This document shows positions 4,951-50,453 of a stretch of 64,000 nucleotides of DNA, piece after piece (position 1 is the stretch's first letter; each line of letters starts with the position of its first letter). The stretch is from Sphagnum compactum. Its lineage: Eukaryota. The translations under genes were made by a program, and so were the position numbers. The stretch is from the NCBI GenBank assembly GCA_965153455.1, contig OZ234493.1, forward strand, positions 2,294,001 to 2,358,000. The letters run 5' to 3'. The notes under the pieces were generated by a model, which had not been told where the DNA came from, did not search any database, and saw nothing but the letters and a program-made list of their open reading frames with translations.

Positions 4951-5639
4951 GGAGTCAGGGAAGTCCGTGTGAGATTCAATACTGTCTCTACAAATTTCAC
5001 TAAACAGCATGCAGGAATGAGGGTGTCTTATTTATCATGAGATTTAGGGTTACAGTAGAAAGGGCAGGGTTGTCAGAGAAGAAGAAAGATCTTGGGAGTT
5101 GGAGGAAGGATGAGAATGATGAGAGAAGATGAGTTTTGGTCCTTTGTTATTATGTTGTTAGGGTGAGGGAATCTGGTGTCTATTGATTGAGGACCAATCT
5201 GGGTAGGTCTGTTGTTGATGGCTTTTGATGGGGGGATGTGTGTTTGGTATTCTCTTTGTTAGATGCATCTTTTCCTAAGTTGGATCTGCCATGGGTTTTT
5301 TTTTTGAATTGTGTCTTTTTCCCCTTGTTCAGTGATTGAATCAGGCTCTTCGAGAAAAAGTGGCATCACCTGGTGAACGAAATCCCAGTTTTATCAGTAG
5401 GTTTCATTGTTTACAGTAAGAGCAAAGGGGGTTGAGGAAGCAAACTTGGAGACTTGGTTCATGATTGCAAGAGAAGCTTCGATTTGTGCAGTCTCATAGA
5501 GCAAGTGAAAAACCATGGTTGTAATGTGATCTGGTAAGCAGAAGAAGAGTGCAAGTGGGAGTCTCATAAGGAAAGGCGTCCTTTCCATTCAGTGGATAAC
5601 TTTCGAGAGAGGGAAGGAGGATCCTTGCAGGACTGCAGA

Positions 5640-6194
5640 ATGGGGGTTTTATTGTCAAGGCTATGGTTCTTCATGTTTCCAGCGAAGGAGTACAAGATTG
5701 TGGTAGTTGGGCTGGACAATGCTGGCAAGACAACAACTCTTTACAAATTGCATTTGGGAGAGGTGGTGGTCACACAACCTACTGTTGGCAGCAATGTTGA
5801 AGAACTTGTGTACAAAAACATCCGCTTTGAGGTATGGGATTTGGGGGGCCAGGAGAGGTTGCGGCCATCTTGGGCAACTTACTATCGAGGAACTCATGCA
5901 GTGGTGATGGTGGTTGATAGCACTGACCGGGATAGAATTGCAATCACCAAGGATGAGTTGTTCAAGTTGTTGCAACATGAAGAATTACAGCATGCAGTGG
6001 TGCTAGTCTTTGCAAACAAGCAGGACCTTAAAGATGCTATGACACCAGCGGAGATCAGTGATGCTCTCTCATTGCACACCATTAAGAAGCATGATTGGCA
6101 CATCCAAGCATGTTGTGCCCTAACAGGGGAAGGATTATGGGATGGGTTAGGTTGGATTGCTCAGCATGTCACAGGAGCCCAAGTGGTATCCTAG
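5640..6194 (+). CDS. ARFC1: ADP-ribosylation factor-like GTPase, ARL5/ARFC1 type (184 aa, intronless CDS)
   Basis: ATG at 5640 gives [32 protein letters not shown] (P-loop), WDLGGQ (G3), NKQD (G4) and CCALTG (G5), with Gly2 as a myristoylation candidate. It closely resembles plant ARFC1/ARL5 as I recall the family. Probable 5'UTR intron from donor CAG|GTCAGT (4891) to acceptor TTGCAG| (5630). Confidence 0.95.
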
Positions 6195-9330: not shown

Positions 9331-9720
9331 AGATTAAAATGCATTTGTGCGTTTCCAAATTTAACATATGAATTTGCAAAACTTGAGGCCTATAAGTACT
9401 TAAACTTGTGACACTTTGAAGGACTAGATAAATTATGTTGACAACTCTGACTTGCCCCATCGCTTCCATCACTTTCGAAAGTTTCATCATTGACAATAAT
9501 CATTAAACTTGTAGTAGATTATTCAATTCTGGTAGAAGACCCAAACTTGGGTGCTTCTACAGCTATGCACAATAGACTTAACGTATGTGAAGAGAAAGAT
9601 GAAGAAGGTAGGATCAACAATAATTTTGCTACGAAGGCCTTTAATTTTAATGGAGATTTTAATTTGAACCAAGTTGGTTGAAACCTTTCATGGCCCACAA
9701 ATGTTCCACAAGATTTGATC

Positions 9721-12650
9721 TTAAATTGAAGTGGGTATGTGAGTTTTCAATCTCTTGAGTGCCTTGCATGATTGCATGAATGAATTAAATGTTAACCCTC
9801 GATTTAATTGCACAAGATTTGCTTGTTGAAAGAAAGGTTCCAAATGATTGTTTATATCATCTTCAATTATCATATTATGGAGAATCGCACAAGCAACCAT
9901 CACTTCATAAATTATATCCATTTTCCATAATCTACATGGATTTTGGATGATCGCAAAGTGAGCTTGTAAAGTGTTGAAACATCTTTCAACGTCCTTTTTC
10001 ACACCTTCCTACATTTTTGCAAAATGTGGTATTTTTTAATATCTTAATTCATGTATGGCTTGTACCAATGTTGTGCATGTAAATGTCAATACCTATATAT
10101 AGGACATGTAAATCTTGTGCAGGTGTAAATCATTTACATTTATATGTCTGAATTTTTACACTTACACTAACAATGTTGTTGTGGATATATATTTTACTAC
10201 ACTTACACGACGCTAATGTAAATATTTGTCAAATACATTTACATGGACCTCTGTAAATGTTTTGAGGGTGTATAAATGTAAGTGTATATGTATATATTTT
10301 TGTAAAATCACCTTGTCATTTGGCCTCTTTCCACCCCCAAATCTCTTTTCTAATGGTATCCATAATTATTTTTTTAAAAATTAAATTTTAATATGAAATG
10401 TTAAAATTCATCATTTAATGCATAAGGTTCAAGAATAATTATAGTTCTATCATGAATGTCAACGTTATGTAATTCATTCATATGAATGTTCATCCATGAC
10501 TTGTAATGAACTTGTATTAATTTTAAATTTAAATTTAATTCATTTTCATTTAACTACTAGTTAAGTTTTACTTTTACTTTTAGTCAATTCTTAGTTCATT
10601 TCCAGTTAACTTTTAGTTTATTCTTAGTTAAATTCTAGTTCACTTCCAATTCACTTCTAATTAATTTTTAGTTCATTTCCAGTTAATTTTTAATTAACTC
10701 TCAGTTTATTTGTAGTTGAATTTAATTTCATTTTTAATTAAATTGTAGTTCACTTTTAGTTGAATCTTAATCCATTCATAATTTACACATGGGTGAACAC
10801 AAGCCACATGTGGGTTGGAAGTTCTTTGAGGTAGATGCCTAATGGGTACAAATAAAGGTAAAATTTTCATTATTTTAGTTTGTTCAACATTAGTTTTGGG
10901 TATGTTTTTTTATTATAACCTTGTTTTGTTTTTCCCTTGCAACAAAATCTTGTTGGATTCTTGTTTTGCACGTGTCGTGTTTTTTTTTTTTGTTTCACAA
11001 TCAGTTTTGGAACTAAGCATGCCCTTGTTATCATATTGGCTAAAAAATCATGTAGACCTAGTTGTTTTTGTGCCCATGACAATAGATATGTAGGTTGGCG
11101 TAATGAAATTATATGTAGCAACTATGGAGGCACTAAAAAAAAGGAAAAACAAAATGAACTCAACTTATTATACAAATTGATGGTTTTTAAAATTCCACCC
11201 CTTGACCTTAAATGATAATCTATTTTTTAAAGTGTTTTTTCTGAAATAATCAGCCTTTTTTATTATCAAATTCAAGGTTTTAATGTTGTGTTTTCCTAAC
11301 CTTAAAGATAATTTTATTAATTAGTTGTGGGTGCATGTTTTGACTTTTTTTTTGCAATGAGCCAGTTGGTTGGCCTCATCAAAAACATTATGAAATCCCC
11401 CCTCCTCAAGTAAAAATCACATTTTTTCATTGTTTTACATTTACATTATTTAACACAATCATGTAAAATGATATAAATGTATTTGTTTTACGTTTACACT
11501 TTTTCACAATCATTAAAATCATGTAAATGCATTTATTTTTACATTTACCTTTACACATTTCTACACGGCATAAAATGAAATTACACGGTTTTACACTTGC
11601 ATTTACACGTTTCATGTTCTACAATTACACTTACACAATGTAAATAAATATTAAACATTTATACTTACATGAATTGTAAATAAATTTGATTGTGGGATTT
11701 ACACTTACATGGAATTTAAATCCCGAACGATTTACACACACAACATTAGTTTGTACAAAACAAGGCCACTATGGGTAAATTCCATTTGTCAAAAGATAGT
11801 AGTGGGGATGAGTTGTTCCATTCACAATAAAATTGAAATCTTGCCAACTCTTTGCCAACAAATTATAAATTAACAATGATTGGTCTGGAATGTTGATGTC
11901 ATTGTTTCCATTGGGAAGGCCAAAGAAAGCGTGTCAAATCCAAAGATATTGGTTTGCGATTGCTTCAAATATGATAGACCTATTTCCATCCTTATTTTGG
12001 AATTGTCTTTGCCAACTGATAGGGCAACAATTACTCCATTCATAATGCATACAGTCCAAGCTCACAAATATTCCTAAAAATCTTCAACTTTGCATTGATC
12101 TCCAATTGTTGTTCAATGTCAGTTTAAATAAGCTCTCTCAAATACAATGGCCGAAAATGTGCAACAATGGCGCGCACAAATCATTTGAGATGTTCATTTG
12201 TCGTACTCACCAAGTTTGCAATATTTGTTCATAGAATCAACAACACGTATTCCATACGTAAGTTGTCAAAGAACAACGATACATTTTTGGATTGTAGATG
12301 ATTCAAATTTTCCTATATAATCATGTCATTGCACAATAAAATCATCATACTCACAAAATGCAATGCATTATTCTCAAAAATAATGTGTGATCGATCCATC
12401 CTACAATGATACATGAATATACTTTCACCAAGTGTAGGCAAAGGTGCAAAGTAATCATGAAATGTCGTTTCATGACCTTGCTACCAATCTTTCAACAAAT
12501 TTTTCAATCACCCAGGCTTGAAACCATTGTGTGTTCTTGCAAGTTCTGTGTCATTTGCAAAGTTGATACACTATGCTAGCCAAAAATAACTCTTCACAAT
12601 TTTCATCTTCAATGGTAATCTTGGAATTGGAACAATAATCGTTGTCTCCA
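9721..12650 (-). mobile_element. Decayed PIF/Harbinger DDE transposase, interrupted by a nested insertion at 10066-11748
   Basis: Minus-strand fragments in the expected order: QGHETTFHDYF, QKC..L.QLTYG, DCMHYEW, PNGNNDINI.DQS, YYLLTNGIYP*WPCFVQ [insertion] QAIHE..HFAKM*EGVKKDVERCFNTLQAHFAII..ACAILHNMIIEDD. Many stops and frameshifts; 5' end approximate. Confidence 0.88.
10066..11748. mobile_element. Non-autonomous hAT-like DNA transposon (1683 bp) nested in the Harbinger transposase
   Basis: Left end CAATGTTGTGCATGTAAAT versus reverse complement of right end TAATGTTGTGTGTGTAAAT. Flanking 8-bp direct repeats GCTTGTAC (10058-10065) and GTTTGTAC (11749-11756). Dense TTACAC/TGTAAA subterminal repeats at both ends. 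No coding capacity recognised. Confidence 0.85.
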
Positions 12651-18614: not shown

Positions 18615-19799
18615 CTATTCAGCTTGTGCCAAAGATTGATCCTCCACTGGAGGATCTTCTGGTGTAGTTGGAGGGGACTCAACAGTTCTGGATGAGGTTT
18701 GAGAACCTGTCAATCGTGCAAGTGCCACAAAGGTTGTCCCGCCAAGCACATTGTTGAGGCCTCGAAGAAGAAAGACAGCTGATTTGAATGCTGTGGGATG
18801 CAACTGGGCTGCTAAAGAGAATTCGAGCCCATTTAGGGTCTGGTATCTTAAGTTGCTGCTGAATCCCATGTGCAGTGCCCAAGTAGCAGCATTCAGGACT
18901 GTGGGAGGTGATTTGTTTTGTATCACAAAATCAGGATCCAGTTTCTTCCTCAAAGACAGCAACACATTTGAGAGCGCTGTTCCCACAAGACCTGCAGCAA
19001 AACCAACAACTGCAAACTGCATTCCCTTGTAAACAAAAGTGCCTGTTCGGTCGAAAAAAGAGAATTTCCCCGCCTCAAACATGTGTCCAGCAGGACAGCT
19101 TGCAAAGATTCCAGGAAGAAGATGGGGGGCAGCACCAATACTAGTTAATCCTGCTGCTGTTGTCGGAGCTAGCATGTACATAAGAGTGAAGTTCAGGATT
19201 GATCCAACAACTATGGTCGAGAAGACAAAGTCAAGTTCATTCAGGCCGAAATTAGGTCTCGAGGCCATGTCTCCCAACACATTAGCTCCAACACCGATGA
19301 CCTCTTCCATCAACACCTTAAAAGCAAACTGCGGATCAGCTTGTACCCTTGCTTGCCAACCTCTTAAGAATGCACCCAACAGACCTCCAGCTGGTGATAC
19401 ACCACCACCTCCTCCGTTCTCTGATCTTCCCCAAGAATTGTTCCCATGAGATCCACTGCTGCCGCTACCACCACCGTCACCAGCACCACCATCTCCTGCC
19501 CCGCCTTTGGTGCCTGCTCCATTACCACCACCTTCTAGCACTAGGGCTTTCTCATAACCCATCTCAGCAGCTGAAGCTCGCAACCGTGTGATGTGTAGAG
19601 GTCTTGAAGAAGTAGCAATTAACTTGGGTGCATCATCAGATTTCCAAGGCTTGATGGAGGAGAGTGAGATAAGTTGAGACTTGGAAACAGATTCTGATTC
19701 AAACCTGGGTGCCGGCATAGGGAGAACTGTTGCCATAGATGATGATGATGATGACATTTGCATCATTGCTGATTGCTTTAACATGGCTAATGCTGCCAT
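18615..19799 (-). CDS. RETICULATA-RELATED (RER2/RER3-like, DUF3411) plastid envelope protein, 394 aa, intronless CDS
   Basis: Ser-rich transit-peptide-like N-terminus and Gly-rich linker, then GWQARVQADPQFAFKVLMEEVIGVGANVLGDMASRPNFGLNELDFVFSTIVVGSILNF...MGFSSNLRYQ, typical of DUF3411 RER2/3 proteins. Confidence 0.93.
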   Translation of the reverse strand: MAALAMLKQSAMMQMSSSSSSMATVLPMPAPRFESESVSKSQLISLSSIKPWKSDDAPKLIATSSRPLHITRLRASAAEMGYEKALVLEGGGNGAGTKGGAGDGGAGDGGGSGSSGSHGNNSWGRSENGGGGGVSPAGGLLGAFLRGWQARVQADPQFAFKVLMEEVIGVGANVLGDMASRPNFGLNELDFVFSTIVVGSILNFTLMYMLAPTTAAGLTSIGAAPHLLPGIFASCPAGHMFEAGKFSFFDRTGTFVYKGMQFAVVGFAAGLVGTALSNVLLSLRKKLDPDFVIQNKSPPTVLNAATWALHMGFSSNLRYQTLNGLEFSLAAQLHPTAFKSAVFLLRGLNNVLGGTTFVALARLTGSQTSSRTVESPPTTPEDPPVEDQSLAQAE

Positions 19800-19864
19800 G
19801 ACTCTTCACCCGAAGAAATTCTGAAGAAAAAACTTGAGATCGCCCCAAAAAATCTACAAAACCA

Positions 19865-34699: not shown

Positions 34700-35710
34700 T
34701 AACTCTTGCATGCATGCTGGAGGAACCCTTCTAGCCTGAGATATTGGGTTCACACTAAATTGCCCAACTCGCCTGGTTGGTGGCATTCTCAATGTAGGCT
34801 ATGAAGATTTGGTTTTAGGAGTACTGGCTGCTTCCACACTTCATAAACAGAGTGTATATATTATATGAGTCATCTTGCCCTTTCCAATGAGATTGTGCAC
34901 AATGCCTGTACAGATGCATGTGTGAAGCTCCTTAATCCCTGTCCTGATTGTGCACCCGAACAAATACGCTGCATAGCTATATTTGGGCAACAGCGTCAGA
35001 ACACTAGATCTGCAGGGAATATGGACAGGGCTTGAGATTGTTGTCCATGTGCCAGGGGTGTTGCAATACAGCATGTGGTCCAACATGCCCAGAGTGTGCA
35101 GTATTGTCTACAGAATGCAGTCCACATGCCAGGGAGTCTGCAAGATTGTGCACAGAATCTGGACATAGACTGTGTGTGTACAGAGAGGAGAGAGTTTTCA
35201 ACCCTAATACCCCCAAGCTCCTCAACTCTGTTTCATAGAAACAAGAGAAAATGCATGAAGCTGCTTGGTTAGTTAATTGTAATGAGTGGAACAGTCGTTC
35301 TTATGTCTGTGTGCCTCAATTATGGAAGAATGAAAATTGACAGTGGCAACATGGCATGGCTGTGGAGTTCAATTCAATCTCCTGTTTTATGTTTTCTTTT
35401 GCCCCACTCAGCTGGGCATAAGGTGATTGTCATCTGCCCTCACTAATTCTCCAAGTTTAGATTCCTTTTATTGTGCACAACATCACTAACCAATACTAGC
35501 AGGCATAACTATGAAATTGCAGAGAAATCTCCACAACAACAACAATTTGGAGGTAACTGAAATGAGTGCACTCGTAACTTATTATGAGGGGTCACTCACT
35601 TGCAAAGTGTCAGACCATCACCTTCATCACAAATAGCAGTGACAAGCTGCCATGACTACCCACTGCCAACGCAATGAGCAATGCAACAAAAGTACAAACA
35701 CAAGCAAAAA

Positions 35711-35771
35711 ATCTGAGGGTGTTCACATTGATACCCATATCTGAGGGTGTTCACATTGATACCCATATCTG
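35711..35771. repeat. Perfect 28-bp tandem duplication
   Basis: atctgagggtgttcacattgatacccat x2 + atctg. Confidence 0.95.
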
Positions 35772-35888
35772 TAACATTATCAAGCACAGCGGTCATGGTC
35801 TCAGCACAATCAAGCATCATCTGAATCAAGTCTATTTTGTCTCCAAGTCCCAGAGTACCAAATCCCTCCCCAGTGGCTCGCATGTGAC

Positions 35889-37907
35889 CTAAGCACGCAT
35901 GGTCTTTGTCCTGTCATACAAGCAGATAGTAAACCCCCCTTTCTGTTAAAAAAAAAGTAGGTGCATCTGAAGCATGCTATATGAACCTTGTGCATGAAAG
36001 AGATCTAGATGCAGACTCTCAGCTGTCTGTCACATCACAAGAATCAAATCAGTCCAGTGGGCTTCAGTTTCACAACAAATATGCTCTGATGTCCAACCAG
36101 CTGAAACATGAGCAAATGTACCTGCAATTTGTGTGACAACCCGCACCATTCCAGTCACCCTGTGTCAGATTTACCATTAAAAAATGAGCATAATTCTCAC
36201 ACACTCTTGGAACATAAAGAAAAACAAAACAGAGTAGAAGATACCCATTCTAACATGGTCCAATTCTTTCAAAGACAGGCTTGGGTTCTCGCATCAATAG
36301 GCTTGGGGTCCAGTGAAAGGACCACCCCTGCAATCTCTGTAATCCTCTGCAATAACCACCACCAATATACTGTTCAAATTATTACAAACCAATGAACATA
36401 AGCAACAAAATACATTAGGTATTCAATTGGAGCAACAAAAAATTACTTCCCACAACTCTAGCAAATTATACAATTCCAGAAACTTCAAAATCTGTGCACA
36501 TTTATGTACCTCTAGGATATAGCGAGCTGCCCATAACTGGTCTGCTGCTGCAATGCCGATTGAAGGTCCCACTTGGAACTCCCACTGTGGCATGAGGAAC
36601 AGGCAACAAATATCAGTGATTAACAGTGTAGAAGAGAGCAATAGGTGAAGCTGTGCTCCATCACATACACACATGATATGTTGTGACAATTCTCTCCAAG
36701 TCTCAGTAAACTAGGGTCCCATTGGTCATAATGTAGAGAAGGCTAGTCAGGCAAACCTAGAGCAAGCTGAAGATAATTCAATGCAGAATTATCAAATACC
36801 TCCATACATTCATTACAGTGACAATACTGGGTTTTGGAAATGTACTTTACCTGACCAGGCATAACTTCACCATTGATACCACTGATTTGAATGCCAGCAT
36901 AGAGGCATGCTTTGTAATGGGCATTCACAATATCACGGCCCCAGGCTTTGTCAGCTCCTGTTCCACAATAATAGGGTCCCTGTGGGCATGCAAGGGCTGG
37001 CATATTAGAAAAATGCAACAGCATTTAAATCCGTAGTACCACCAATCCTCTGGCCTGACAGTCATGGAAAACAAATGGCCTAATAATAAACCACAATGAA
37101 TAATAATATTTGCTGATAGAAGTTGGATGCATTTTTCAAGGCCAGAGATGACAATAGAATTTGGACCTAAGAGACTTATCCAAAGCAAAGTTTGTGACTT
37201 GCTGGAGCACTACACATTTGTCAAAGATTCTGTAATTTTACTGCAAAGAAGGACAGATGCAAATTGCCCATTTGAGATAGTAAGAAAATTAGTACAGCCT
37301 CAGACACTATTTCTGCTCTAAAACTCTGCATAAGACACAAGATTACATGCCAGGCCATGAAAATGCAGGTGTACAAGAAGGGGTTCACTTCACCTGAGGT
37401 CCAGAGTATCCTCCCTTTGGCCAACCAAGATGCCACTTGATGTCTTTCTGTAGCAAAGTGTATTCTTGCTCTAGTCCAAACCTGGACTCAAATGCATAAT
37501 ATGCCATATTCATCAGGATCTGCATCTTTACCAAATATAACTCTGCAAACAATCTCAATACCCTAGAGCTTGGTGCAAGGGTTTATGGAAGGTCCAGAAA
37601 CTCCTGTCTACTATCCTCAAATCCTTGACAAACAAAATCATAGCATTGAACTTACCAGGGTACCTCCTCAGCAACCTCCTTCTTGGCAAAGACCTCGGCA
37701 GCAGCTGCTCTCTTGTTGGTTGGGATAGGTACACCCTGAGGAGTATATGCATCACAAATAACCTAGAAAATTGCAACACAAGTTGCAAAAGAATTCATGG
37801 GGTTAGTAATTCTCCCCCAGCATTCCCAGCTACTAGTTTCTAAAACTCAAGTTGCAAGAACTGTATATGTGGATACCTACCAGGATGTTGTGTCCCCTGC
37901 GCAATGG
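35889..37907 (-). pseudogene. Internal fragment of a glutamine synthetase (GSII) gene, truncated mid-exon at both ends, introns retained
   Basis: Exons: ~37907-37881 (PLRRGHNIL), 37762-37656 ([22 protein letters not shown]), 37481-37394 ([16 protein letters not shown]), 36979-36851 ([15 protein letters not shown]), 36584-36510 (WEFQVGP..YILE), 36346-36293 (RITEIAGVVLSLDPKPID), 36159-36122 (GDWNGAGCHTNC), 35910-35889 (TKTMRA*). The N-terminal exons (AEYIW, RSKAR, WNYDGSST) and the C-terminal part (NERRLTG, GVANRG, EDRRP) were not found. Confidence 0.92.
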
Positions 37908-37925
37908 GAGCAACCTGCTGCCTCC

Positions 37926-39020
37926 TCAGGAGGTTTCCAAAAGACCCACAGCAGACATCCACATCCCTGCCACAATGACAACTCCTGCACTTATCAGCCC
38001 TAGCAGAGAGGAAGAAGCCCTTGCAAAGAGCCTGGCATGGGAGAAGTCACTGTCCTTCTCCTCCTCCTCCCCTGGGCCAGAACCATTTGCAGGTGTATGG
38101 TACCTTGCAGCAGTTATCCTGGGAACTGATGACAGGAAACAGATGCAAAGATACATGGTCAACAATGTGATGGCAATTGTGAGCAGTGTGTGAACCCCTT
38201 GAAAGAATAACAAAGATTTTGATTGCTTCTCTGCCTCCTTGTCAAAATCATTCTCTTGTGTTACAACTAACTCTATTTGCTGTTTTCCACTCTGTAGATG
38301 CATGAAGCAATATCACAAAAAACACATATCTCACTACCATATAAATTATGGTTTGAAATATAAACAACCTCCCACCTCAAGATGCATATCACATGGAATC
38401 ATTGAAGGTCTTACACCTAGTTCGTTCAAACTAATACTCATATCGACTAAAATGCAGTTTGCATCTAAGAAGCATACAATGCATGCTAGACTGTTCCCCA
38501 AAATTCTCCATGGTATGGAGACATCTCATTGTTTTTCTACAAACTAGGTGGGGAGACCAATGATGAGTTCCTTGTGGGCCACTCTGGAAATAGGTTATAC
38601 TTGTTTCCTACTCACTGCAATACGCTGTCCACGATGAGCTCCATATTCTTCACTAAATATTCTGCACTAGCAATGTGGATCTGGGTACCCTCACAAAGCA
38701 AAAACTGGGTTGCAAAACTGGTAGTAGACACCTGGGCATCATCCTAGGGGAAATAGAAATTGATGAAGTGGTGGAGGACAAGGGGGGGGGTGGGGGGCTG
38801 TATGGTCCCAAGATGCAGAACTTTATCCTGAACTACCTATACTGATATACAGAAGTTCTCAAGCACATCAGAATTTAGTTCAGTGTCATGGTTATTTGAA
38901 TGTTAGAGTAACGCAGTTCATACTACAACTGCTCACCAAAATGCTCAAAGGTGACTGCAAAATGGTAAGACATACTACTGACCTCCACAATCTTCCCACT
39001 TAGAAGACACCAACCCCAGC
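37926..39020 (-). other. Chain of exon-like segments of an unidentified gene directly upstream of the GS fragment
   Basis: Segments 39020-38983, 38680-38616 and 38118-37926 have AG acceptors; the first two end in GT donors. They join into a stop-free frame WGWCLLSGKIVE-IHIASAEYLVKNMELIVDSVLQ-ITAARYHTPANG..LLGLISAGVVIVAGMWMSAVGLLETS*. Family not recognised. Confidence 0.4.
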
Positions 39021-40837
39021 CTTCAAAGTGATGCAACAACATTCAGATTTGACAAGCACCTCTACAATTTATTGATTTGTGTCAATTTATGTCAATTGAA
39101 TTGTCAATTCCTGATCCTGCAACTTGCAGGTTTACATTCAGGCTGTTGATAACATTACATGCACAGTTGGGATTTGTCCACACACCCTTGCACTTGAATC
39201 TGCCTGTTGCAATGAAGATATCAATCTCATCCTCATGATTCAACCTCAGTTTCCACGTCCTCCTGATCAGCTTTTCTGCATGAACTCTGTTGAATTCAAG
39301 ATTTTGAGTCCAGAAATTCATATGGAAAACATATGGCAAGGTAAAACCACCACCTGCGCCTTGGGCTGCACACCAGTGCGAGTTTCATCACACAATCATA
39401 CCGCCAGTTCTAAAGTTCAGCTCCCTGTCCTTAGTTCAAATAGTTTATCTAGCCTCTTGTTTCTTGTAAAAGAATTGAGTGTAATTTCCCCAAGTCTATT
39501 GTTAAAGCTCCTCCTGCCTCAAGAAACCAGACCCAAAACCAAAAAACCAAAACAAAACAAAACAAAACAAGACTAGACTCAAACTAGAAGGATCACCAGT
39601 CCTGAACAAATACATCAAGTCGCACCTGTAACTAAATACTTAGGGAAGAACTTGTTTCTATGAAGCTTTTGTGAGGAAAGAACAGAAGGCCATCTCACAG
39701 TGAATGAAAACTGTGAGACAAGAGCTAGATATAAGAACCAATCTCAGTTGGACAAATTCAAACATTGCATATTTCATTTAACCATTTGTGAAGAAAGGAA
39801 AAAGGAAGAAAAAAGTTCACGATATGTTGCTTTATTACAAATTGAAGTACATATTTATCAACTTAAAAAAAATTGACCATAAATCAATCAATAGAATTAG
39901 TGTAGATATCAACTTTTGATCTCAATTAAAAACTAAATAAGAAAATAATACCCTCCCAAATCCAAGGGATAACCCAAACAAGTACAATAAGTAACCTCCT
40001 CAAAGTTAGGATAAGGCTCTAGGGATGAGGGCATTACCGGAATCAATCTACCCTCACAATTGCAGAGGCAAATTACACCAGATAAGAACCATGGAGATAA
40101 CCAGTAAGTGAGTAAAAATCTCTGCACTTATGAGGATGAGATGGGTCAGTCAGATCTCCCATTCTAACCCAGGCCATCCATCCCCCACACACTCCTCCAA
40201 TACCACACAATACAACAGTAGTACCTACTAACAAATTTGACATAACCAACAAACCAGTCACTATTACTAGGAAAGATACATAGGCTGCACATGAAATAAA
40301 TGCAAAAGGCGCTTCAAGTTTAGAAACACTTTACACTGGCTTGCTGATTTGCACCAGCTTTTCAAGTAATCCGTTTGTCTGCAACAATCAAATAAGGTGA
40401 GAAGATGGGACAAGAGTCGGGTTTCAGATTTGTTTGTCCACTTGGACATTTAACCACATGTACTAGCTTGAGCCTTTTTCAACCAAATTCATGTTATAAG
40501 TAACAGAAAATGAGACCCAACCAAGACACAAGATAGTGGTGGAAGAAAGAATAATAGCAGGAACTGCCAGTTTTCATTCACTGTGACATGGCTTTTTATC
40601 CTCACAACATCATTGTCATAGAAACATAGTTGTGTGGATAATTTACAGATCATTATGAACTCATTTTAACCTAGGTACTGCTGTCCCTGAAAAAGAAAAC
40701 AATAGCTATGGCATCAAGGTCCTTTAATCACCTTGGCTCCAATTATGATAATTGTCACTACCAACTTTGGGCAAAACAAAGTATGCATACCATACTTAGA
40801 ATGGCAGCTACTGCATCGCAAGTCCAACAACCAGTCA

Positions 40838-43800
40838 CTATCGCCTTTGGAAGTTGAGATACTTGATTGATGCTGCAAATACCAGCCAGAAGAGGCAGAT
40901 AAAGCCTAGCAATACAGCTACACACACACCCACCATTGAGTGTTTAAAATCAAAATAAGACTCTAAATATCCTTGGACAGTTGTACCAGCAGGATATCCT
41001 GCTGCACTGAATGGTGTAGTTATATCACCCAACTGGGATGCTACCAAGCCATACAAAGTCCATGCCACTGGACTCAGATAGTAATACCATTTCCACCACG
41101 GAGGCATCAACTGCAACACCAGCACAAGCAACCTTTACTGTAAGTTCCAAATCTACACACCCAAGTTCTCAATAAGCATTATTCTAGGACCTAGTGCGCA
41201 GTGAAAAGCACAGAAGTTTTACATCAAAATGAAACGTGCAGGAATACAATCACTCCTCAAAACACTAGCAGCCTTCATCACACACTTAAAAGCAGTTCCA
41301 AAGCCAGGTTCGGCACAAGCAGTGTCACTTACGGTCACAGGGATGAGGAAACCCGAGAAAAGGTTCCAAATTGAATAGAAAGCAGATGACACCACTGCTG
41401 CCAACTGCTGTGATGATGTGAGTCCAACAGCCATCATGCCGTAGAAACTGAAGTATGTGAATGTCAAGAACATGAACAGCAAATACCAGAAAAACTTAGC
41501 TGCAACCACACCCACCACAACAATGTTTTTGCTTACAAGCCTTCTTACATCTATGGAAAATGTGACAATCAATTGGGTATGTTTCCCAATTGTCATGCAT
41601 GAATTTTGTGACATTTTTTTCGGAGAAAAATTGAGTTAAGAAGTGCTATGTATGAACACAAAAAAGTGGGCATGATATGACACATGAGGAAGTGCTCATA
41701 AACTTGTGCTGCTAATCCAAACAAAATACACAAGACAGCTTTTGATCAATTGGAGATACCTGCAGTCCATTGAAAATTGATCATTGAGTATGTAATAAGT
41801 GCATACACCGTTGACTGAACCAAAATGTATGGAATCTCTACCATAGCCTGCACAGCAAACCTCTGGTCAATGATCAGGCAAGATTCCCACAGAACAAGCA
41901 CACTGATGTGATCAAGCAACCAAGAATACAACCCTAAACTAATGTTTATGTACGCACACAACTATACAATATGGATCTGTTTGAAACAAGCATTAGTCCC
42001 ATAGTTTGTTCTTTACATGATGTGCGGTAACCACTGTTATGGTGTGAAAGGGCCTAATGACAACAACAATGTTACAATTAACATACAATTAAGGGTTTTG
42101 TTTGATACATACCTGAGCCATTGCATAAGGCATAGGGGAATACATGCCAGCTGCTCGCTCTCTGTAGAAAACTGATCTTTCCACTGCAACTACAGGTTGC
42201 ACACTGGATGCATTATTTACCCCCAAGAATATTACAGCAGCATACAATGCTCCCATCACATTGAAGATCTCCTGTTGTGTTGACCTGTTGTCATGAAATC
42301 AAACCAGTTCAACAGGAAACCTCATCAAATCCTTGCTCCAAAGTCCTGGGCATCTTTGAAAATATGGAAGGAAGGGAAGAAAATCGCTCTGAAATCTTGA
42401 AGTGTGGGTGGGACTGCAAGTGATGAAGGCCTGTCAATGTTTTCAGTCACCTCATCACAAGATTACTAACTATTTCAACATCAATAACAAGTCAATAGAT
42501 ACCAGCTAAAGGAAACTCCAAGCAGATATGGTGAGGGGAGATTGCTTACCTTTGTGAGCCAAGATTCCAAAAAATTGAGCCAAAAATCAATGCACAAATT
42601 GTGGTGAAGAAAAAGCGAACTGCATTGTAATAGGGGCTCCGCCAATATGTAAGGTGTTGTTTCCATAATGTTGCCTGGAGCTGAGTCAAGAAACTTCGAG
42701 AAAACTTGGATGGAAATTCCAGGTCATGTGAGCCAGGTGGTGGGACACTCAATTCTTTGATCACAGCCTCAGTTCTCCTGCAATTTCAAAACATGTTTCA
42801 TGGGCATTATTATACTGTGGATTAAAAAGATCAGAGCTTCAGTTCCCATCACACCATGTCAGTTTCAGTATATCTGGAAGCCAACAGTAAAAATGTCCCT
42901 AGTTAGTTCAGAGCTCTGCAAGACTTACTGGTATAAATCTGAATTTCTGTAAATGTCTGCAAAGTCTTGGCCAATCCTTATCTCTGCAGCTGGTGTACTG
43001 ACCTCCAGCATCCATGTTGCTGGATTATATCCTTCTTTTATGCGCGGAGTACCATCAATTGCCTGCTCATTATGACCACAAACCCCCTTTTTTCAACCTT
43101 GAGGGTCGACATAGATCTTTCAAATTGAGAAATCAACTGCACAACTTATCTACTCCTCCAGAAAATGTCACATAAGTTGTTCAAGAGTATGCAATAAAGA
43201 GTCTGTGATGATATACACCTGAAAATAGTCGATCAACAAATTTGAACGGACCCCAAGTGGACCAGCATAGATCACTTGCCCACCACGTTTCATCAGCAGA
43301 AGCTGCTTGGTGCACCATATATTAAAAGAATTAGGCAATTGACAAGCACAACAACAAAATAAATTCTCTATTATCAACACAGTAAGAGTACTTGCAAAGT
43401 CAGCTGTATTGGCCCATTATCACTTCAATTACTCAGCCTGGAAAGAGCAGTAAGAAAAGACAGAAACATCAATCTTTTACTGGCCACATCTATCTTTAAA
43501 GGATTCGAGCACTTAAAGCAAAAATGTTCAAATCTGGGATTGTTTCAAACCTCATCAAAAGCCTCAAAGATGTCAATGCTTGGCTGATGAATAGTGCAAA
43601 CCACAGTTCTCCCTGTATCCACAGTATTTCGGACTGTTCGCATGACAATTGCTGCTGCTCGAGCATCCAATCCTGATGTAGGTTCATCCATGAATATAAT
43701 GGAAGGATTGGCCACAAGTTCTACAGCAATTGTGAGTCGCTTCCTCTGTTCTGTTGAGAGCCCAGTGCTGCCTGGAAGTCCGACTAAACCATGCCTCAAA

Positions 43801-46800
43801 GAGCTTAGCTCCACCAACTCCATAACCTCCTCCACAAAAGTCTACACAAAATCAATATTAATTCAACAGCCATTAGAATAGCCAGTCAAATTTGCATACA
43901 CCATAAACCAGGACTAAGTCCACTGACTTATATTACATTGTTAAGAACCCCAAGTCATGAGACAAACTGCACTTGGACCTACCTCCCTAGTTGCACGATC
44001 AACTTCCTTTGGGAGTCGCAGCCATGAGGAATATGTTAAAGACTCTTCAACTGTAACTTGTGGAGAATGGATGTCTGTCTGCTCAACATAGCCTGCAATG
44101 CGAGCAAAAGTTTCCTGGTTTTTGGGGTACCCAGACACCCTAATATCCCCCTCAATATACCCACCAGTCTTCCTTCCAGCGAGAACATCCATCAAGGTGG
44201 TTTTTCCTGCTCCACTAACTCCCACCAATGCTGTAAGCACACCTGGTCTGAATGCACCACTAATATTCCGCAGAAGCTGCAGCTTATCAGAAGTCACTCC
44301 CTCCCCCTTCATTTCCTGAATGGGTTCAACAATAACTGTCCGTCAAAAAATGATCATATGTAAATTTTATCAAGACATGTTTCTGTGCTCTATCACTAAA
44401 CTGACTAACAAGTCCTCAACATTAGACTGGTACCACAGAACCTGCATTCCACCTGCTAACTACCCATTCTCCTTGCATCTTCTACCTCAAGGGTGTGATA
44501 GTGTGATATGATGTTGGATGGCATGTACAAAATGTTGTTGCTCATCTACCACACATTTGGAAGCATTCAGTGTGACTCAAGACACTTACAGCAGGCATAT
44601 CAACATAGTAGTTGACATTGTGGAAGGTCAACGCCAGTGGCTGAAAAGGCAAGATCATGCCCTTCTGTGCCTGAGCATGGCCCTCCTGGACATCATCAAT
44701 TTCCACAGCTGTTTGTTGCACGCCACTGTGCCGCCCAGATGATAGGCCTCCCATTTGAATTCCCTCTGAAATCACCAAACAGTTCCATAAGCACCAAATT
44801 GACTATGACATGGGTGCTGCTAAAGTTCTACTGAAGCGAGCCCCAACTAAGATCCACCATTCTCTTGCTCTCTCAACTTCTCCATGCTCTTTTTCAAACC
44901 CCTCTAGCTCCACCCAAACCAGGTACACAAGCACAGTCATAAAGGGATGATCTACTGCAATGACCAATGCTGTTGGTGCTGATATGTACCTGCTTCATTC
45001 CCATTAGTCTCTGAAGAGGCATGCACAGATGACAGACTTTTGTCCCTTTTCGAAATAGCAGCTCGATTCTCCACTTTTTCAACCAGAATATCCTCTGACA
45101 CCATTGCCTGGGGCTTGCCCAGAGCTGATCAAACAAAGTACAAATTTGTCATTTAAAAAAATTCCCCAATTTTCCTGTCACAAGTTCTGGTGACAATCAT
45201 AATCACTGAACCAAAACACATGGACAGAATCACAAAACCGTAAATTAAGTTAAGTGGATAACTTACGGTTGAAATATCCCAGAGCGAAGGTCACCAGAAT
45301 GTTGAATAGAATCATGTAGCCTATAAGGGCACCAATACCAACCCAGTACCAGTAACCCGCAGTGTGAATTCCTCGTGATTTCAGTATGGCCACCCCAAGT
45401 CCATTCTGCAAATTCACCAACTCCTTGTCAGGTACAGTATTTTGCTGTCCACCACAACTGACCATTACAAATCATCACTCCTTGTACATGCAAGAACCAT
45501 ATGCATTTAATCCTTGATTATATGCCCTTGAGATGATGCACATCCTATTGTTAACGCATTCCACACCAAGAATTTGTTATTGCCATGCTATTGACTTTGC
45601 TAACAATTACAGAATCTTGTGCTGTAAGCCCAACATGACATGTGCATTTTGAGGATTTTTACTCTGCATCCAGCAGTATGGATACAGCCTTGAGTTCTTG
45701 AAAGTTAGGTCCATGCCAACAAGGCAGCTGATCCAATGAGTTTGAGACACAAAAGAAATTCACCCTAGTATGTCTCACACTACAATAAGCCTCTTCTGGA
45801 TGTTGATGACCACATAATGCAAGCATTCCTGGTATGGACTTTATAACCTAGGGTTCTCAAAGACATACCGCCTTCCATCGGGGGGCAAGAAACTCATTTA
45901 CAGCAATGGCATTTTGAGCATATGAGAGAGGTGATATCCAATAGCCCCATACCCACCAAGGATGTATATTTTCTGCATCAACAATGCTGCAGATCAGTCC
46001 TGTACTCATGCTGTTCTGCTGAGTAGCTAGCTATCTATCTAGAATTTCTGTATGGACCTGGTAAATCAGAAAAAAAGATAGTCCTCCTCCATATTCTAAC
46101 AAACAGAGAACCACCCAACATATCCGGTATGATGCACAAGCATCAATGATCAATGAGTAGAAGAGACGACCAGTTTTTGCGATCTAAGGCCTATGCAATT
46201 ACTAGCCAATCTAACATTGCAGTTAGCTCAGAAATCAACATTGGAAAATTATACTCTTCCCTCAATCAAACAGTACAAAAACAAAAGAATATCAACACTT
46301 CCCAAGGGGTTGTTCTTACGTTTAGCAAGGATGAAACCGCCGAGTAAGAAGACAACCAGAAGCGCAAAGGAACCAAATGTATTAGCAATGATCATAGATC
46401 GTCCAAGGGCACCAATTGTCCGGAAAAGCGCAATGGCCATCTGATGCATACAAAATAACAGCAACAAGTACCGGAAGAATCTGCCATGAAACACTCCAAA
46501 ATGAGTCAGAGAATTGCTTACAGGAAAACATATTGACAGACAGCACTCAATGATGAGAGCATGTGCACTGTGGAGAATTTCATCTCACCTGCCAGGTTCT
46601 GGAGCGAGACCCACAACGTAATAGACGATGCAAGACCAAATGATTGATTCAGCGACGGAATATGGAAGCCGCAACAGCCAGCTGGGAATGGAGAAAGCCC
46701 AGCCGGGATAGAACAAATTATCACGTTGCTTGTAGAAAACCGGGAGGCGAGCCACTGTGATAGACATCTCGGAAAACCCATTGAACATCATGTGTACCAG

Positions 46801-49800
46801 TGCAAAGAAAAGTGTAGCCAAGTACAGTGTACCATAAGTCTGCGTTGTTGGGTGCAACCTTGTCCGGAAGAAGAGAGTAGCAGCAATAAATGCCACAAAT
46901 GCTACCTGCTCAATTCATCCACTTTTTACAATCTATTCACATGAATTTGACCATCAAGAAAAATGAGCCACCTTCATGTTGCTGCAAACAATAATGAGTA
47001 AAGAAATGGTGAAAAAAGTTTTGCTACCTCACCTGACAAGTTCGGAAGATATACAGAAAACGATTTCGTTTGATGAGCAACATCTCCCTAGCTGTGCATG
47101 CTTTCAAGAGCTCCCACCTTGATAAAGCGAATCTGTCATGGACAAGCGCTGCAGGGTGGCTATCAGCTTTGTTGAATGAAGTATTGAGGTAATTTGTGAG
47201 ATCTCGTCCGACCTCAAACTCCTTGAAAGCATCTGCTATTGTAGCAACAGGTACATAGCGATAAGGTGTCCTCTTATCAGCCCAGTATTGTTCCTGATCC
47301 TTCCTTGATGTGACCTGCCATTCATTTTGCAATTTGCCTAGCATAAGATAGATTTACAAGGAATCATGCCAAACACAACTCCTTTAAGGAGATCATCAAT
47401 TGTACGAAACCCTAAACCCTAAAAACCTGTACTAAAAGCCAAAGAAAAACACATGCTACTGTGACCTCAATTGTGCTTGACAGCTAACGGGAAAATGGTT
47501 GTCTAGAGGTGTGGAGGCAAAGCAGCAGAGAACATAGAACATTTTGGACAAAGTTTGATAGTCCAGATTCAGCCTACAGTTTGCTTCCTCCATCTCTTGA
47601 ACAAATTTCCTTACCTCTTGAAGAAAGTCTGCAATGCCTTTCCGTGGGGGAAGCTTGAAACCAATACTGTCAAAAAACTCCAAGATCCTTTCACGTGGTC
47701 CAAGATAGACAACATGACCCTCAGCCAGCAGCAAAATGTCATCAAATAACTCAAAAGTCTCAGGGGCAGGCTGAAGAAGAGCCATCAACACAGTCCCCTC
47801 CAACAAATGCACAAAGTTGCGAGTGCACTTCACGATCTGGTATGTTGTCGAACTATCAAGACCTGTTGAAATCTCATCCATGAACAGTGTCTTCTTTGCT
47901 CCAACAATCATTTCACCTGTACAAGATGAAAAACAACATCACAATAATAATCAGGCATGATGATGAGCATCAAGCATGACCTTGCAGTTGAAACAAACTT
48001 CAGGATTTTTCAGCCACAACACATCAAGGCTCATCATCAGTTCTCACCATTGCAGAGCTCTCTCAACAAGTTTTTATAATTAAATTTCTGGCAAGCACAA
48101 CTGAGCTGCAAAATCTTCTTTGCATGAGCCTCATGCTGTATGTCACCATTACTTGTTGATCAACCTCCTTGGAGAATGATTTGAAAAACTGAACTTTGAC
48201 AACTAAGTTCTGGAGGAAAGGAATTCTGAACCTGTAGTGACACGTTTCTTCTGTCCTCCTGAAATGCCACGAAGCATCTCATTGCCAACAACAGTATCAG
48301 CACAGATGTCAAGGCCAAGTATTTTCATTACATAATCTGTTGTGAGACTGTGCCTTTCCCCTTCTACAGCCACCGCCTACCATACACAACAAACAACATC
48401 TTTCAGAAAAAGAACTTGGAGGTGATTGGGATTGGAGCACTTGTTAGATCTTGAATACATATACAACAGCATGTGGGAATTTTGGGATCAAATGACACAG
48501 ATGAAGAATTGAGGTTATTTGTCAAATGGCAATCTGCAGAGATAGCTCCAAATCCTCCAGAAATTTTCTTTCTCTGTACAATGCTCAGCTCGAAGCTCCA
48601 ACCCTGGCATGCATAGGACTCTGCAATTTCATGCTAGACTCATAAACTTGCAAAAGGAAACCCTATTGCGCTTGTGCACTTCAGCTGCAAGAAAGTAATG
48701 CACATGACGCACCTTCATGTACGCATCAATGTCTGGGTCTGGGTGAATGTTTTGCTCCTTTTCCCTCTTAGCAAGCTCTCTAAGCAGATCTGCAACAGAA
48801 AGAAGCAAGAGTTCAGGAGGAAAGAAAAAAGAACTCCTTCAGGAACAAAACAACACAAAACCTAGTGCCACAATTTCCACAACACCAAGAATCAATCAAT
48901 CAAAAGCAGGAGTTGTTTGTTGCTGCAAAACACACACCATATCTGTAACCAACTCCTTGGCATCGTGCAGAGAAATCCAAGGTCTCTCTTACAGTAAGCT
49001 CTCCAATATGATTATCATTTTGACTGATGTATGCCGACGTTCTTTGAGGCACAAACTCCTTGAGTGTATGACCGTTGTAGGTGATAGATCCTGACATCTG
49101 CCAAACAAAAAAACCAGTGACAAACTCAATGAAAATAATTCATACATTTTGGACACACATGAATTTCAGCAGCTCCACCACAACAAACTAGACTTTGTAT
49201 GCTCATATAGAAGAAGTTCACAGCTGCACTCCCATCCAAAAGCAACCCAGAGACAGAGACAGAGGGAGACAGAGCGATCAGTTTCTCACCTCCAGATCTG
49301 AATCAAGCTTGCCAGCCAAAGCCAACAGAAGAGTAGATTTTCCAGCACCTGGAGGACCGAGGAGCAAAGTCATTCTGGCAAAAAGCAAGCAAGCAACAGG
49401 AAGAGAGATTTTCAGAAGATATAATAAAACAGCAGTTGTGCTGCTCCACTTCTTCATCATGCTACAACAGATGCAGATCATCATTACCAATGAAGAAAAG
49501 AAGGCAAAGCTCGTGCCTTTGTGCACGAATGATAGATGGATTCATGAGAAACAATAGTATATTAAGCTTTTGAAACAAAAACACTTGCCTTCCAGGTCTA
49601 ACAACACCACTGACACCATTCAAAATAGGAAAGTCTCGCTTGTTTTTGGGCAGAACCTTGCATTTTGCCAACAGACTCTGTGACAGCAGATCCACAATTC
49701 TTCTTCTTAGTTGGAGGAAATCGTTGAAATTAGCTCAATCAAGAAAAAGAAGAAGAAGAAGAGCAACAGCAACAACAGCAACAACAACATGAACAGAAGA

Positions 49801-50453
49801 AATGAGCAGCAGGCAGCAATTCACCTCCAGGATGTTGCGTGTAAAGTTGATAAGAGTAGGAAGAGCCCTGCTTCCCACATAGACTTCAGCGTTGACAAAC
49901 AAGTCCTGAAATCGCACCTCAACTGTAGGCTGCTGTATACCAACCCTGCAGCAGCACAACAACAACAACAACAAACAGAAAAGAGATCAATCCAGTGTAC
50001 GTATGAGCATGCAGAAGACGACTTGGCGATAAGCTTTCGCTGATGAGGAAGAAGAGAAAAAGCTTTCGGTCGAGCTTTTTACCTGTGAAGGCGTTCATTG
50101 ATGCGGTTGAGGAGACGCTCGTTGTCTTGCTCGTTGGTCGCAAGAGCCTTCTCGATCAAGCTCTGGCGCTGTCCCTGCCCCAACTTTCTGACATCCACCG
50201 GCACCGTCAACTCCTTATTATTACTGCCTCCCTGCGGAGCAAACGGCTGTATAATAGCGGTATGGAGTCTGTTGTAGGTCGGTAGCTTCTCGAGCGCAGC
50301 CCATTTCAGCGCCTCGTCATCGTCCTCTTCCGCACTCGTCATGCTCGAGCGCCGAAATGCTTCCCGCCCGTCTCCTGTGTCCCGCCATATCCTCGACCCG
50401 CCATGCTTCCTCTCGAACCATACATCTCCCTCTGGCACTGACGCTTCCGCCAT
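40838..50453 (-). CDS. Full-size ABCG/PDR transporter (ABCG31-like; 24 exons, 1490 aa)
   Basis: Exons (5'->3') 50453-50083, 49945-49825, 49677-49589, 49374-49290, 49097-48938, 48789-48713, 48376-48232, 47916-47615, 47314-47033, 46905-46589, 46480-46320, 45972-45869, 45444-45267, 45124-44990, 44765-44590, 44315-43983, 43841-43551, 43302-43219, 43062-42929, 42777-42550, 42284-42113, 41847-41760, 41499-41333, 41110-40838; 4473 nt in frame. [18 protein letters not shown]1 [38 protein letters not shown]2 [38 protein letters not shown]-terminal LNFQRR. The subclade assignment is tentative. Confidence 0.96.

Follow-up and report, generated by a model that had tools for sequence, protein, structure and literature searches.

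We analysed 64,000 nucleotides of the Sphagnum compactum contig OZ234493.1 (positions 2,294,001 to 2,358,000; hereafter the window, in whose own numbering all positions below are given), in which part of a glutamine synthetase (GS) gene lies embedded in pieces of a single hybrid histidine kinase (HK) gene. The GS piece occupies 35892..37901 on the minus strand and comprises 6 whole and 2 partial exons and 7 introns, covering residues ~84-258 of ~360. The kinase sequences extend on either side of it, at 38303-37902 and 35891-35763; that the GS piece sits inside a histidine kinase gene fragment had been missed in the initial annotation of this DNA. With adjoining sequence, these pieces make up a mosaic patch of ~3.1 kb, about 35510-38620, which lies between the 3' end of a plus-strand gene and the 3' end of a gene for a pleiotropic drug resistance (PDR)-type ATP-binding cassette (ABC) transporter.

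When aligned to the parent gene described below, the GS piece opens with a partial exon of 21 nt encoding RRGHNIL (37901-37881), continues through six complete exons (exon 2, 37762-37656; exon 3, 37481-37394; exon 4, 36979-36851; exon 5, 36584-36510; exon 6, 36346-36293; exon 7, 36159-36122) and closes with a partial eighth exon of 19 nt followed by TAG (35910-35892), all on the minus strand. The exons sum to 531 nt, or 177 codons, and contain no internal stop; the open reading frames (ORFs), tblastn and the parent alignment agree on this structure of six complete exons between two partial ones, as initially described. All 7 introns are retained, and 6 of the 7 keep canonical GT-AG ends. The splice donor of the sixth intron (36291..36292, minus strand) has changed from GT to GC: it reads GCGAGAAC in the window versus GTGAGAAC or GTAAGAAC in the parents, and GT is found in 5/5 parent sequences, making the change private to the window. 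Stop-to-stop ORFs and tblastn with 5 GS proteins limited the GS homology in the window to ~35889-37907, minus strand. The initial annotation had given exactly this extent for the GS slice and had read the end of the upstream exon as PLRRGHNIL; the slice stands, with GS homology itself running from 35892 to 37901, and RRGHNIL is indeed GS, the preceding "PL" being kinase-derived. In the tblastn search, the rest of the window gave no further GS match better than E 0.26. The N-terminal exons (residues 1 to ~83, most of the beta-grasp domain, Gln-synt_N) and the C-terminal exons (from ~residue 259, the last third of Gln-synt_C) had no counterpart in the window, so that none of the missing GS exons lies nearby or elsewhere in the 64 kb. 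Because both GS ends are absent, the window copy cannot encode an enzyme, which bears out the earlier judgement. The GS identity of the piece is nevertheless far beyond chance, since the 43-aa exon alone matches 1547 GS proteins at E<=0.001 among 1551 candidates. Pfam returned no family for 4 single GS exons (25-43 aa), which are too short for an informative search.

The kinase assignment of the flanks comes from protein-level similarity. The first part (37902..38303, minus strand; phmmer and tblastn) represents the two-transmembrane (two-TM) region up to CSHCA and carries a 1-bp frameshift near 37939-37942. The 128-aa ORF at this place (37929-38312, minus strand), used as a phmmer query against 1.84 billion proteins, gave 7 matches: The closest is P0121 (152 aa, 91% identity, E 1.8e-62), and the longest is P0125 (868 aa, 45% identity), which has weak HisKA, HATPase_c and Response_reg matches. 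A sub-threshold Pfam match of the same ORF to Orai-1 (E 1.8e-4, below cut-off) was rejected as a transmembrane artefact; P0121 gives the same weak match, and the ORF is the two-TM exon of the HK. By tblastn, kinase residues ~199-335 fall at 38303-37898, with a change of frame at 37941/37942, and residues 382-426 fall at 35892-35761; a contig of run X17 omits 1 letter at 37939 relative to the window. The second part (35763..35891, minus strand; tblastn) is an exon piece, LGHMRATGEG...VTDMG, from the dimerization and histidine phosphotransfer (DHp)/HisKA region just after the phospho-acceptor box. It is 93% identical to residues 178-221 of P0128, a Sphagnum balticum hybrid kinase, 84% identical to residues 390-433 of P0132, also a Sphagnum kinase, and 76% identical to residues 382-426 of P0125. 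The GS DNA takes the place of kinase residues ~336-381, including the phospho-acceptor box (FMAYVFHNIR...). Kinase intron-like sequence lies upstream of the first part (38304..38616, minus strand), where contig depth makes it part of a multi-copy unit, and intron-derived kinase sequence follows the second part (35666..35762, minus strand), where the intron read-through of P0129 aligns down to 35692. Within this last stretch, a perfect 28-bp tandem duplication (two identical copies, 35711-35766) doubles the splice donor of the kinase exon piece, and the same spot is a rearrangement joint in P0133 as well.

The other kinase exons (those for the N-terminal ~200 residues, HATPase_c and the receiver) were not found by tblastn in the window, and the kinase fragment fails every test of a functional hybrid histidine kinase. 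The subfamily nearest the flanks is represented in the library almost solely by short models of 94-168 aa (P0121, P0122, P0123 and P0133), which are differently truncated or rearranged. P0123 has its TM exon fused to a receiver-domain exon, and in P0133 kinase part 2 is fused to the phospho-acceptor exon at a common TCAGA. As a whole, this subfamily may consist, in Sphagnum, of dispersed pseudogenes or cargo copies. It could be argued that the kinase paralogue is native to this site, that GS was inserted in place and that deletions then removed the rest, the window being the founder copy: The kinase pieces are colinear and co-oriented, and microhomology deletions are demonstrably frequent in the kinase family. 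We nevertheless hold such an in-situ remnant to be highly unlikely, given the missing kinase exons just mentioned, the short distance (~290 bp) between the transcribed 3' end of the plus-strand gene and the last base derived from the kinase, and the abrupt end at 38616 of homology to a transcribed kinase copy.

The source of the GS piece was sought by scanning a 22-base exon word through metagenome contigs, which yielded 8 loci (L001-L008). Five of them (L001, L003, L004, L006 and L007) contain a GS gene whose exons correspond to residues 45-363 of P0016; similarity between these loci and the window is confined to 35888-37907, and over ~2036 bp, introns included, their identity to it is 95.1-95.3%. 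The expectation that a parent locus would be found whose homology ends at the breaks was in this way borne out. L002 and L008 are spliced, cDNA-like contigs of the parent GS and encode an intact protein. The window fragment was copied at the DNA level from a GS gene of cytosolic type, which persists elsewhere in intact and expressed form. A processed pseudogene (retrocopy) was also considered and is ruled out, as the initial annotation had reasoned, because none of the 7 introns has been lost, their identity to those of the parent being 96.6%.

The last of the loci considered here, L005, is a second, less deleted copy of the mosaic. In L005 the kinase exon remains intact up to and including the phospho-acceptor box and the GT donor; next come ~130 bp of kinase intron sequence, and then GS, which starts inside an intron ~105 bp upstream of the exon encoding GGSGTDLRSK. 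Its GS exons match residues 45-132 of P0016, and its GS homology ends at the equivalent of window position 37529. Measured against the 5 parents over 360 comparable sites, L005 has 4 derived substitutions and a 14-bp deletion in an intron that also mark the window copy; private changes at these sites number 4 in the window and 6 in L005. Because of the shared changes, the two copies go back to one capture and were separated later. No similarity was found between the L005 flanks and the window flanks. At L005:8725-8740, two telomere-like CCCTAAA units coincide exactly with the joint of a deletion inside the kinase exon, which suggests break healing or repair at that joint.

At junction B (37897..37901, minus strand), the boundary between the kinase exon and GS exon 1, the two sequences share a 5-bp microhomology, CGCAG, with 7 of 8 bases alike: The kinase side reads ...TTGCGCAG followed by ATGTT, and the GS side reads ...TTCCGCAG followed by GGGAC. 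The GS mRNA contig fits the window up to 37901 and then goes on as ...YPQAIFKDPF, and a kinase RNA contig fits from 37897 and goes on as DVGAESHNIV, like P0121 and L005. The window lacks ~994 bp that are present in L005 (L005 8849-9842). Because L005 keeps this ~1 kb more of GS, back to an intron, the 5' mid-exon break of the window is a secondary ~1-kb deletion at the 5-bp microhomology rather than the point of capture. The initial annotation had taken both mid-exon breaks as signs of DNA-level capture; the copying of DNA holds, and the 5' break is this later deletion. At junction A (35889..35892, minus strand), where GS exon 8 (...TKTMRA) joins the kinase exon, identity to the 5 parent GS sequences ends after ATGCGTGCT, the kinase side reads ...LGHMRA, and TAG is created at the joint.

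Could the two junctions have been made by the assembler, from a real GS gene and a real kinase gene? Both parents are at least 95% similar to the pieces, and junction B (37901/37902) coincides exactly with a break between short-read contigs of X1, a DNA run that accounts for 87% of the sampled words and from which the assembly itself may derive. We attach next to no probability to such an artefact. Private substitutions and the 14-bp deletion are spread along the fragment relative to all parents, one X1 contig (35796-36899) bridges junction A, and depth is equally raised on either side of junction B (191 and 179). The same kinase-GS linkage occurs in L005, an independent metagenome contig, and a 5-bp overlap is too short to mislead an assembler.

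We next consider how far the GS piece has diverged. The window differs from the 5 parents at 12-15 of 531 exon sites (2.3-2.8%) and at 49-51 of ~1465 intron sites (3.4%), which supplies the comparison of intron with exon divergence called for at the outset. The parents themselves form two lineages, L001/L007 and L003/L004/L006, which differ from each other at 11-14 of 531 exon sites and 44-45 of 1451 intron sites. A three-way count assigned 7 exon and 27 intron changes to the window alone (34 in 1982 aligned sites), 5 and 19 to the first parental lineage and 6 and 20 to the second. Since the counts of private changes are similar in the window and in both parental lineages, the fragment lineage is about as old as the split of these two, or somewhat younger if the parent in its own species represents a third lineage. 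The event had been called fairly recent; with 34 private substitutions in 1982 sites and derived changes shared with L005, that description holds in relative terms only.

The window copy shows decay in its 4 replacements at near-invariant sites, in the GT>GC donor and in the kinase frameshift. Of the 7 private exon changes, 3 are silent and 4 are replacements on the minus strand: P>H at 37431 and P>S at 37405, where 44/48 full-length GS proteins keep the ancestral residue, Y>C at 36125 (kept in 45/48) and S>R at 35910 (kept in 47/48). The fragment also has private letters at 37757 and 36959. The ratio of replacement to silent changes is 4:3 in the window versus 2:9 (fixed) or 4:13 (including polymorphisms) in the parents. 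Because there have been only 7 exon substitutions, open GS frames are expected by chance and are no sign of constraint. Two further candidates were set aside. CpG depletion was tried as a sign of silencing: The observed/expected ratio is 0.105 in the fragment, but 0.16 in the parent stretch and 0.15-0.21 in the flanks, and of 10 CpGs common to two or more of the 3 lineages, the window has lost 2. P0024, a decayed GS fragment of Sphagnum fallax (110 aa, 4 replacements), was rejected as a member of the mosaic, being about equidistant from the window and the parents.

Three metatranscriptome runs, which hold 24-26% of the sampled words, bear on whether the fragment is expressed. An RNA contig of depth 160 splices the six internal GS introns and continues into true GS at both ends, and is therefore the parent mRNA. 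At 7 of 7 listed differences within the GS piece the RNA has the parent letter (6 sites found in all 5 parents, and 37693 in 3/5), and two indels in the RNA contigs also match the parent states. The RNA contigs on the fragment are assigned to the parent because they carry parent letters at the listed differences, and the low-depth ones over the introns represent parent pre-mRNA. The initial annotation had suggested that the fragment could yield GS-homologous RNA; no RNA evidence of its own transcription was found, the overlapping RNA contigs carrying parent letters at the listed differences, and the suggestion has gained no support so far.

At the protein level, the 43-aa exon is 100% identical, among the matches listed, to P0015 (a GS of Physcomitrium patens), to P0009 and to several metagenome proteins. 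P0009 is a Sphagnum compactum model of 130 aa, and it carries the window-private Y>C together with read-through into the next intron; at least one public annotation therefore calls a "protein" on this very fragment. Such a model, the GS frames open across 177 codons, the GT-AG ends kept in 6/7 introns and the tail-to-tail arrangement with a transcribed gene might be taken to favour a function, either as a spliced chimeric kinase-GS protein or as a source of regulatory antisense or small RNA acting on the mRNA of the parent GS, to which it is 97-98% identical. We judge a function of either kind to be extremely unlikely. The kinase frame hits a stop 25 bp before the GS part, in addition to its frameshift; in L005, the phase-1 kinase exon, if spliced to the first exon of GS, would put GS out of frame; both GS domains are incomplete; and the 4 replacements fall at near-invariant residues.

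The extent and multiplicity of the patch were read from k-mer depth in X1. Depth is 38-44 in the left flank (34800-35476) and 43 in the right flank (38624-40900). Over the mosaic it is 196, 191 and 179 (35796-36899, 36870-37901 and 37902-38274, with at most 2 differences each: 2, 2 and 1), and it reaches 343 in contigs at 38415-38592 and 343-407 over the kinase intron-like stretch. The mosaic contigs are thus ~4.5x as deep as the flanks, which suggests 4-5 near-identical mosaic copies and hundreds of copies of a short repeat, the depth of one run not being a copy number. The right edge of the patch falls at 38616-38624, where an X17 RNA contig that fits 38237-38616 continues unlike the window and the X1 depth drops to 43. 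At the left edge, contig depth and contig ends delimit an unclassified, very high-copy repeat of ~156 bp (35510..35665): Many contigs start fitting at 35509/35510 and stop at 35642-35665, and summed X1 contig depth is ~9,400-12,000 over 35412-35819 versus 38-44 in the single-copy flanks. The repeat is also abundant in contigs of the RNA runs, many of its copies having internal deletions of 65-93 bp; it matched no Rfam family, and its fold is not unusual (z 0.46). One X1 contig of depth 43 links 38624 to 35511 on opposite strands over 32 bases. Both edges of the patch thus lead inward into the same sequence in the X1 organism, a hint of terminal inverted repeats (TIRs).

These features raise the question of whether the patch is the cargo of a non-autonomous Pack-type TIR transposon (e.g., Mutator-like), of which the 156-bp repeat would be one long terminal repeat. 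The raised depth of near-identical patch sequences, the depth in the thousands at the left edge and the inverted link over 32 bases all speak for it, as do the second mosaic copy in another context (L005) and the kinase family itself, whose many short, differently deleted copies resemble non-autonomous elements. In the window, however, the patch ends are not inverted repeats: Their local alignment score of 15 was reached by 8/300 shuffles, and the alignment does not lie at the termini. Within the window, the only inverted-repeat pairs on either side of the patch are at chance level, and no matching 2-10-bp direct repeat that could be a target-site duplication flanks 35509/38624, where the boundaries are uncertain by a few bases. 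No transposase lies in or beside the patch. The L005 boundaries differ, and neither the 8.7 kb on one flank of L005 nor the 1.5 kb on its other flank contains a copy of the 156-bp repeat. In addition, the flanking kinase pieces are colinear parts of one gene, which fits insertion into a gene better than serial capture. Helitron marks (5'-TC, 3'-CTRR with a hairpin, and an A-T insertion site) were likewise absent from both strands at 35510/38620, boundaries that are themselves uncertain. The Pack-type transposon or Helitron named in the initial annotation accordingly finds no TIR or target duplication in the window and no Helitron ends at the inferred boundaries, and we regard the Pack-type origin as possible but rather unlikely. 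More doubtful still is a stronger version, in which the kinase::GS mosaic is cargo of an undescribed, recently active peat-moss DNA transposon family with long TIRs, a bryophyte counterpart of Pack-type Mutator-like elements (Pack-MULEs), with the 156-bp repeat present in hundreds of copies and the GS exons possibly feeding small RNAs against the parent GS. If the transposon reading were true, Pack-type gene capture would be documented in a bryophyte; in the stronger version, the small RNAs could act on a highly expressed parent GS that is central to nitrogen assimilation.

Based on these findings, we think it probable that the region is a non-functional mosaic pseudogene in a Sphagnum-type genome, formed by repair-type copying followed by duplication and trimming. 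We infer the mechanism, the order of events and the copy number as follows. At least 2.8 kb of a cytosolic-type GS gene, with its introns, would have been copied as DNA into a hybrid HK paralogue, where GS would have taken the place of some kinase intron sequence together with the codons that open the following exon, in the region of the phospho-acceptor DHp helix. The joining may have occurred by double-strand-break repair or by template switching, which fits because the donor is intact elsewhere, host sequence was replaced and not duplicated, and later rearrangements use short microhomologies. The kinase::GS mosaic would then have been duplicated to more than one locus, and each copy trimmed by further microhomology-mediated deletions; in the window copy, a deletion of ~1 kb at the 5-bp microhomology joined the kinase exon to GS sequence in mid-exon. 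The patch encodes nothing useful and drifts neutrally, its GS frames staying open only through the small number of substitutions.

Several observations weigh against this account. The excess of replacements in the window is not significant (Fisher p 0.14 and 0.17 for the two parental counts), though its direction is as expected, and the exon/intron divergence ratio on the window branch, 0.71, is close to the 0.72-0.82 of the functional parents; neutral drift is supported by which residues changed, not by rates. The copy number is taken from contig depth in the single run X1, and depth does not equal copy number. The very high-copy repeat at the left edge, an inverted copy of whose first 32 bases abuts 38624 in X1, favours dispersal by a transposon. 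At junction A the microhomology would be at most 3-4 bp, and the original 5' capture junction is known from only one short-read metagenome contig, L005. The mosaic may have been spread by break repair or by a transposon; whatever the vehicle, the patch itself is an ordinary, decaying mosaic pseudogene.

The surroundings of the patch can be described briefly. For the plus-strand neighbour, initially labelled ASG2, no credible Pfam family was found in 6 ORFs, the only match being a sub-threshold one to DUF6234 (E 0.0072), and the label is unconfirmed. The PDR-type ABCG transporter gene (40841-50453, minus strand) has many exons, with ABC_tran, ABC2_membrane and PDR_assoc domains, and ends with a stop codon at 40841, 2.2 kb upstream of the mosaic, which shares its strand. 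Also downstream of the transporter gene is a pair of 35-nt inverted repeats (39679-39713 / 40568-40602, 86% complementary, 854 nt apart). X1 has ~325 bases where the window has 855 (39527-40381), a length difference that may reflect a polymorphic insertion resembling a miniature inverted-repeat transposable element. Farther away, the window contains a fragment of a PIF/Harbinger-type transposase (9724-10008, minus strand; Pfam Plant_tran, E 5.9e-16, and DDE_Tnp_4), a 396-aa uninterrupted ORF with a RETICULATA-like domain (18618-19805, minus strand; E 1.3e-61) and an ORF of the Arf GTPase family (5538-6191, plus strand; E 5.4e-68), the last two of which look like ordinary genes.

The main consequence of our findings concerns annotation, in that gene predictors can mistake this pseudogene for a real gene. 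With exons 97-98% identical to an expressed GS, it can also distort counts of GS genes and the assignment of RNA-seq reads in studies of peat-moss nitrogen. At the same time, the locus illustrates clearly how mosaic pseudogenes arise and degrade in plants, since the donor, a less-deleted sister copy and both breakpoints are at hand.

How does this mosaic compare with known systems? Its GS part resembles plant cytosolic GS (GS1/GLN1, GSII) in exon identity (97.2-97.7%) and in intron positions, which are identical to those of L001/L003/L004/L006/L007, but it differs in having 177 of ~360 codons, 4 near-invariant replacements and one altered donor. Its kinase part is like the bryophyte hybrid HKs with HisKA-HATPase_c-REC architecture (P0125, P0128 and P0132) in its two-TM and DHp exons, which are 84-93% identical to the Sphagnum members; unlike them, it has ~180 residues' worth left, its phospho-acceptor box is replaced by GS, it carries a frameshift, and it lacks the exons for the ATPase and receiver domains. 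Helitrons capture gene fragments in maize and other genomes, and the mosaic shares with their cargo the co-oriented, intron-bearing gene fragments dispersed in the genome. The inferred window ends, in contrast, carry no TC, no CTRR with hairpin and no A-T site, at boundaries that are uncertain. Pack-MULEs and other Pack-type TIR elements are known from rice, maize and Arabidopsis; in a full-text search, the listings and abstract openings returned included nothing about the present locus or about capture of the Pack type in Sphagnum. Like Pack-MULEs, the mosaic has intron-bearing fragments of more than one gene in one orientation, is apparently multi-copy and is mis-annotated as a gene. Unlike them, the window copy has no TIRs or target-site duplication and no identified Mutator-type termini, and its two kinase pieces are one gene interrupted by GS rather than serial captures. 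Other known kinds of such sequence are gene-fragment pseudogenes, the filler DNA or templated insertions left by double-strand-break repair in plants, and the products of template switching by microhomology-mediated break-induced replication (MMBIR) or fork stalling and template switching (FoSTeS). The window patch is large (2.0-2.8 kb) and seemingly propagated to several loci, which is not expected of simple fillers. It nevertheless resembles filler DNA and templated insertions in being an intron-bearing copy of part of a gene whose donor is intact, in the replacement of host sequence within the mosaic, in the short microhomology at a rearrangement joint (junction B, which is a secondary deletion) and in the telomere-like filler at a joint in L005.

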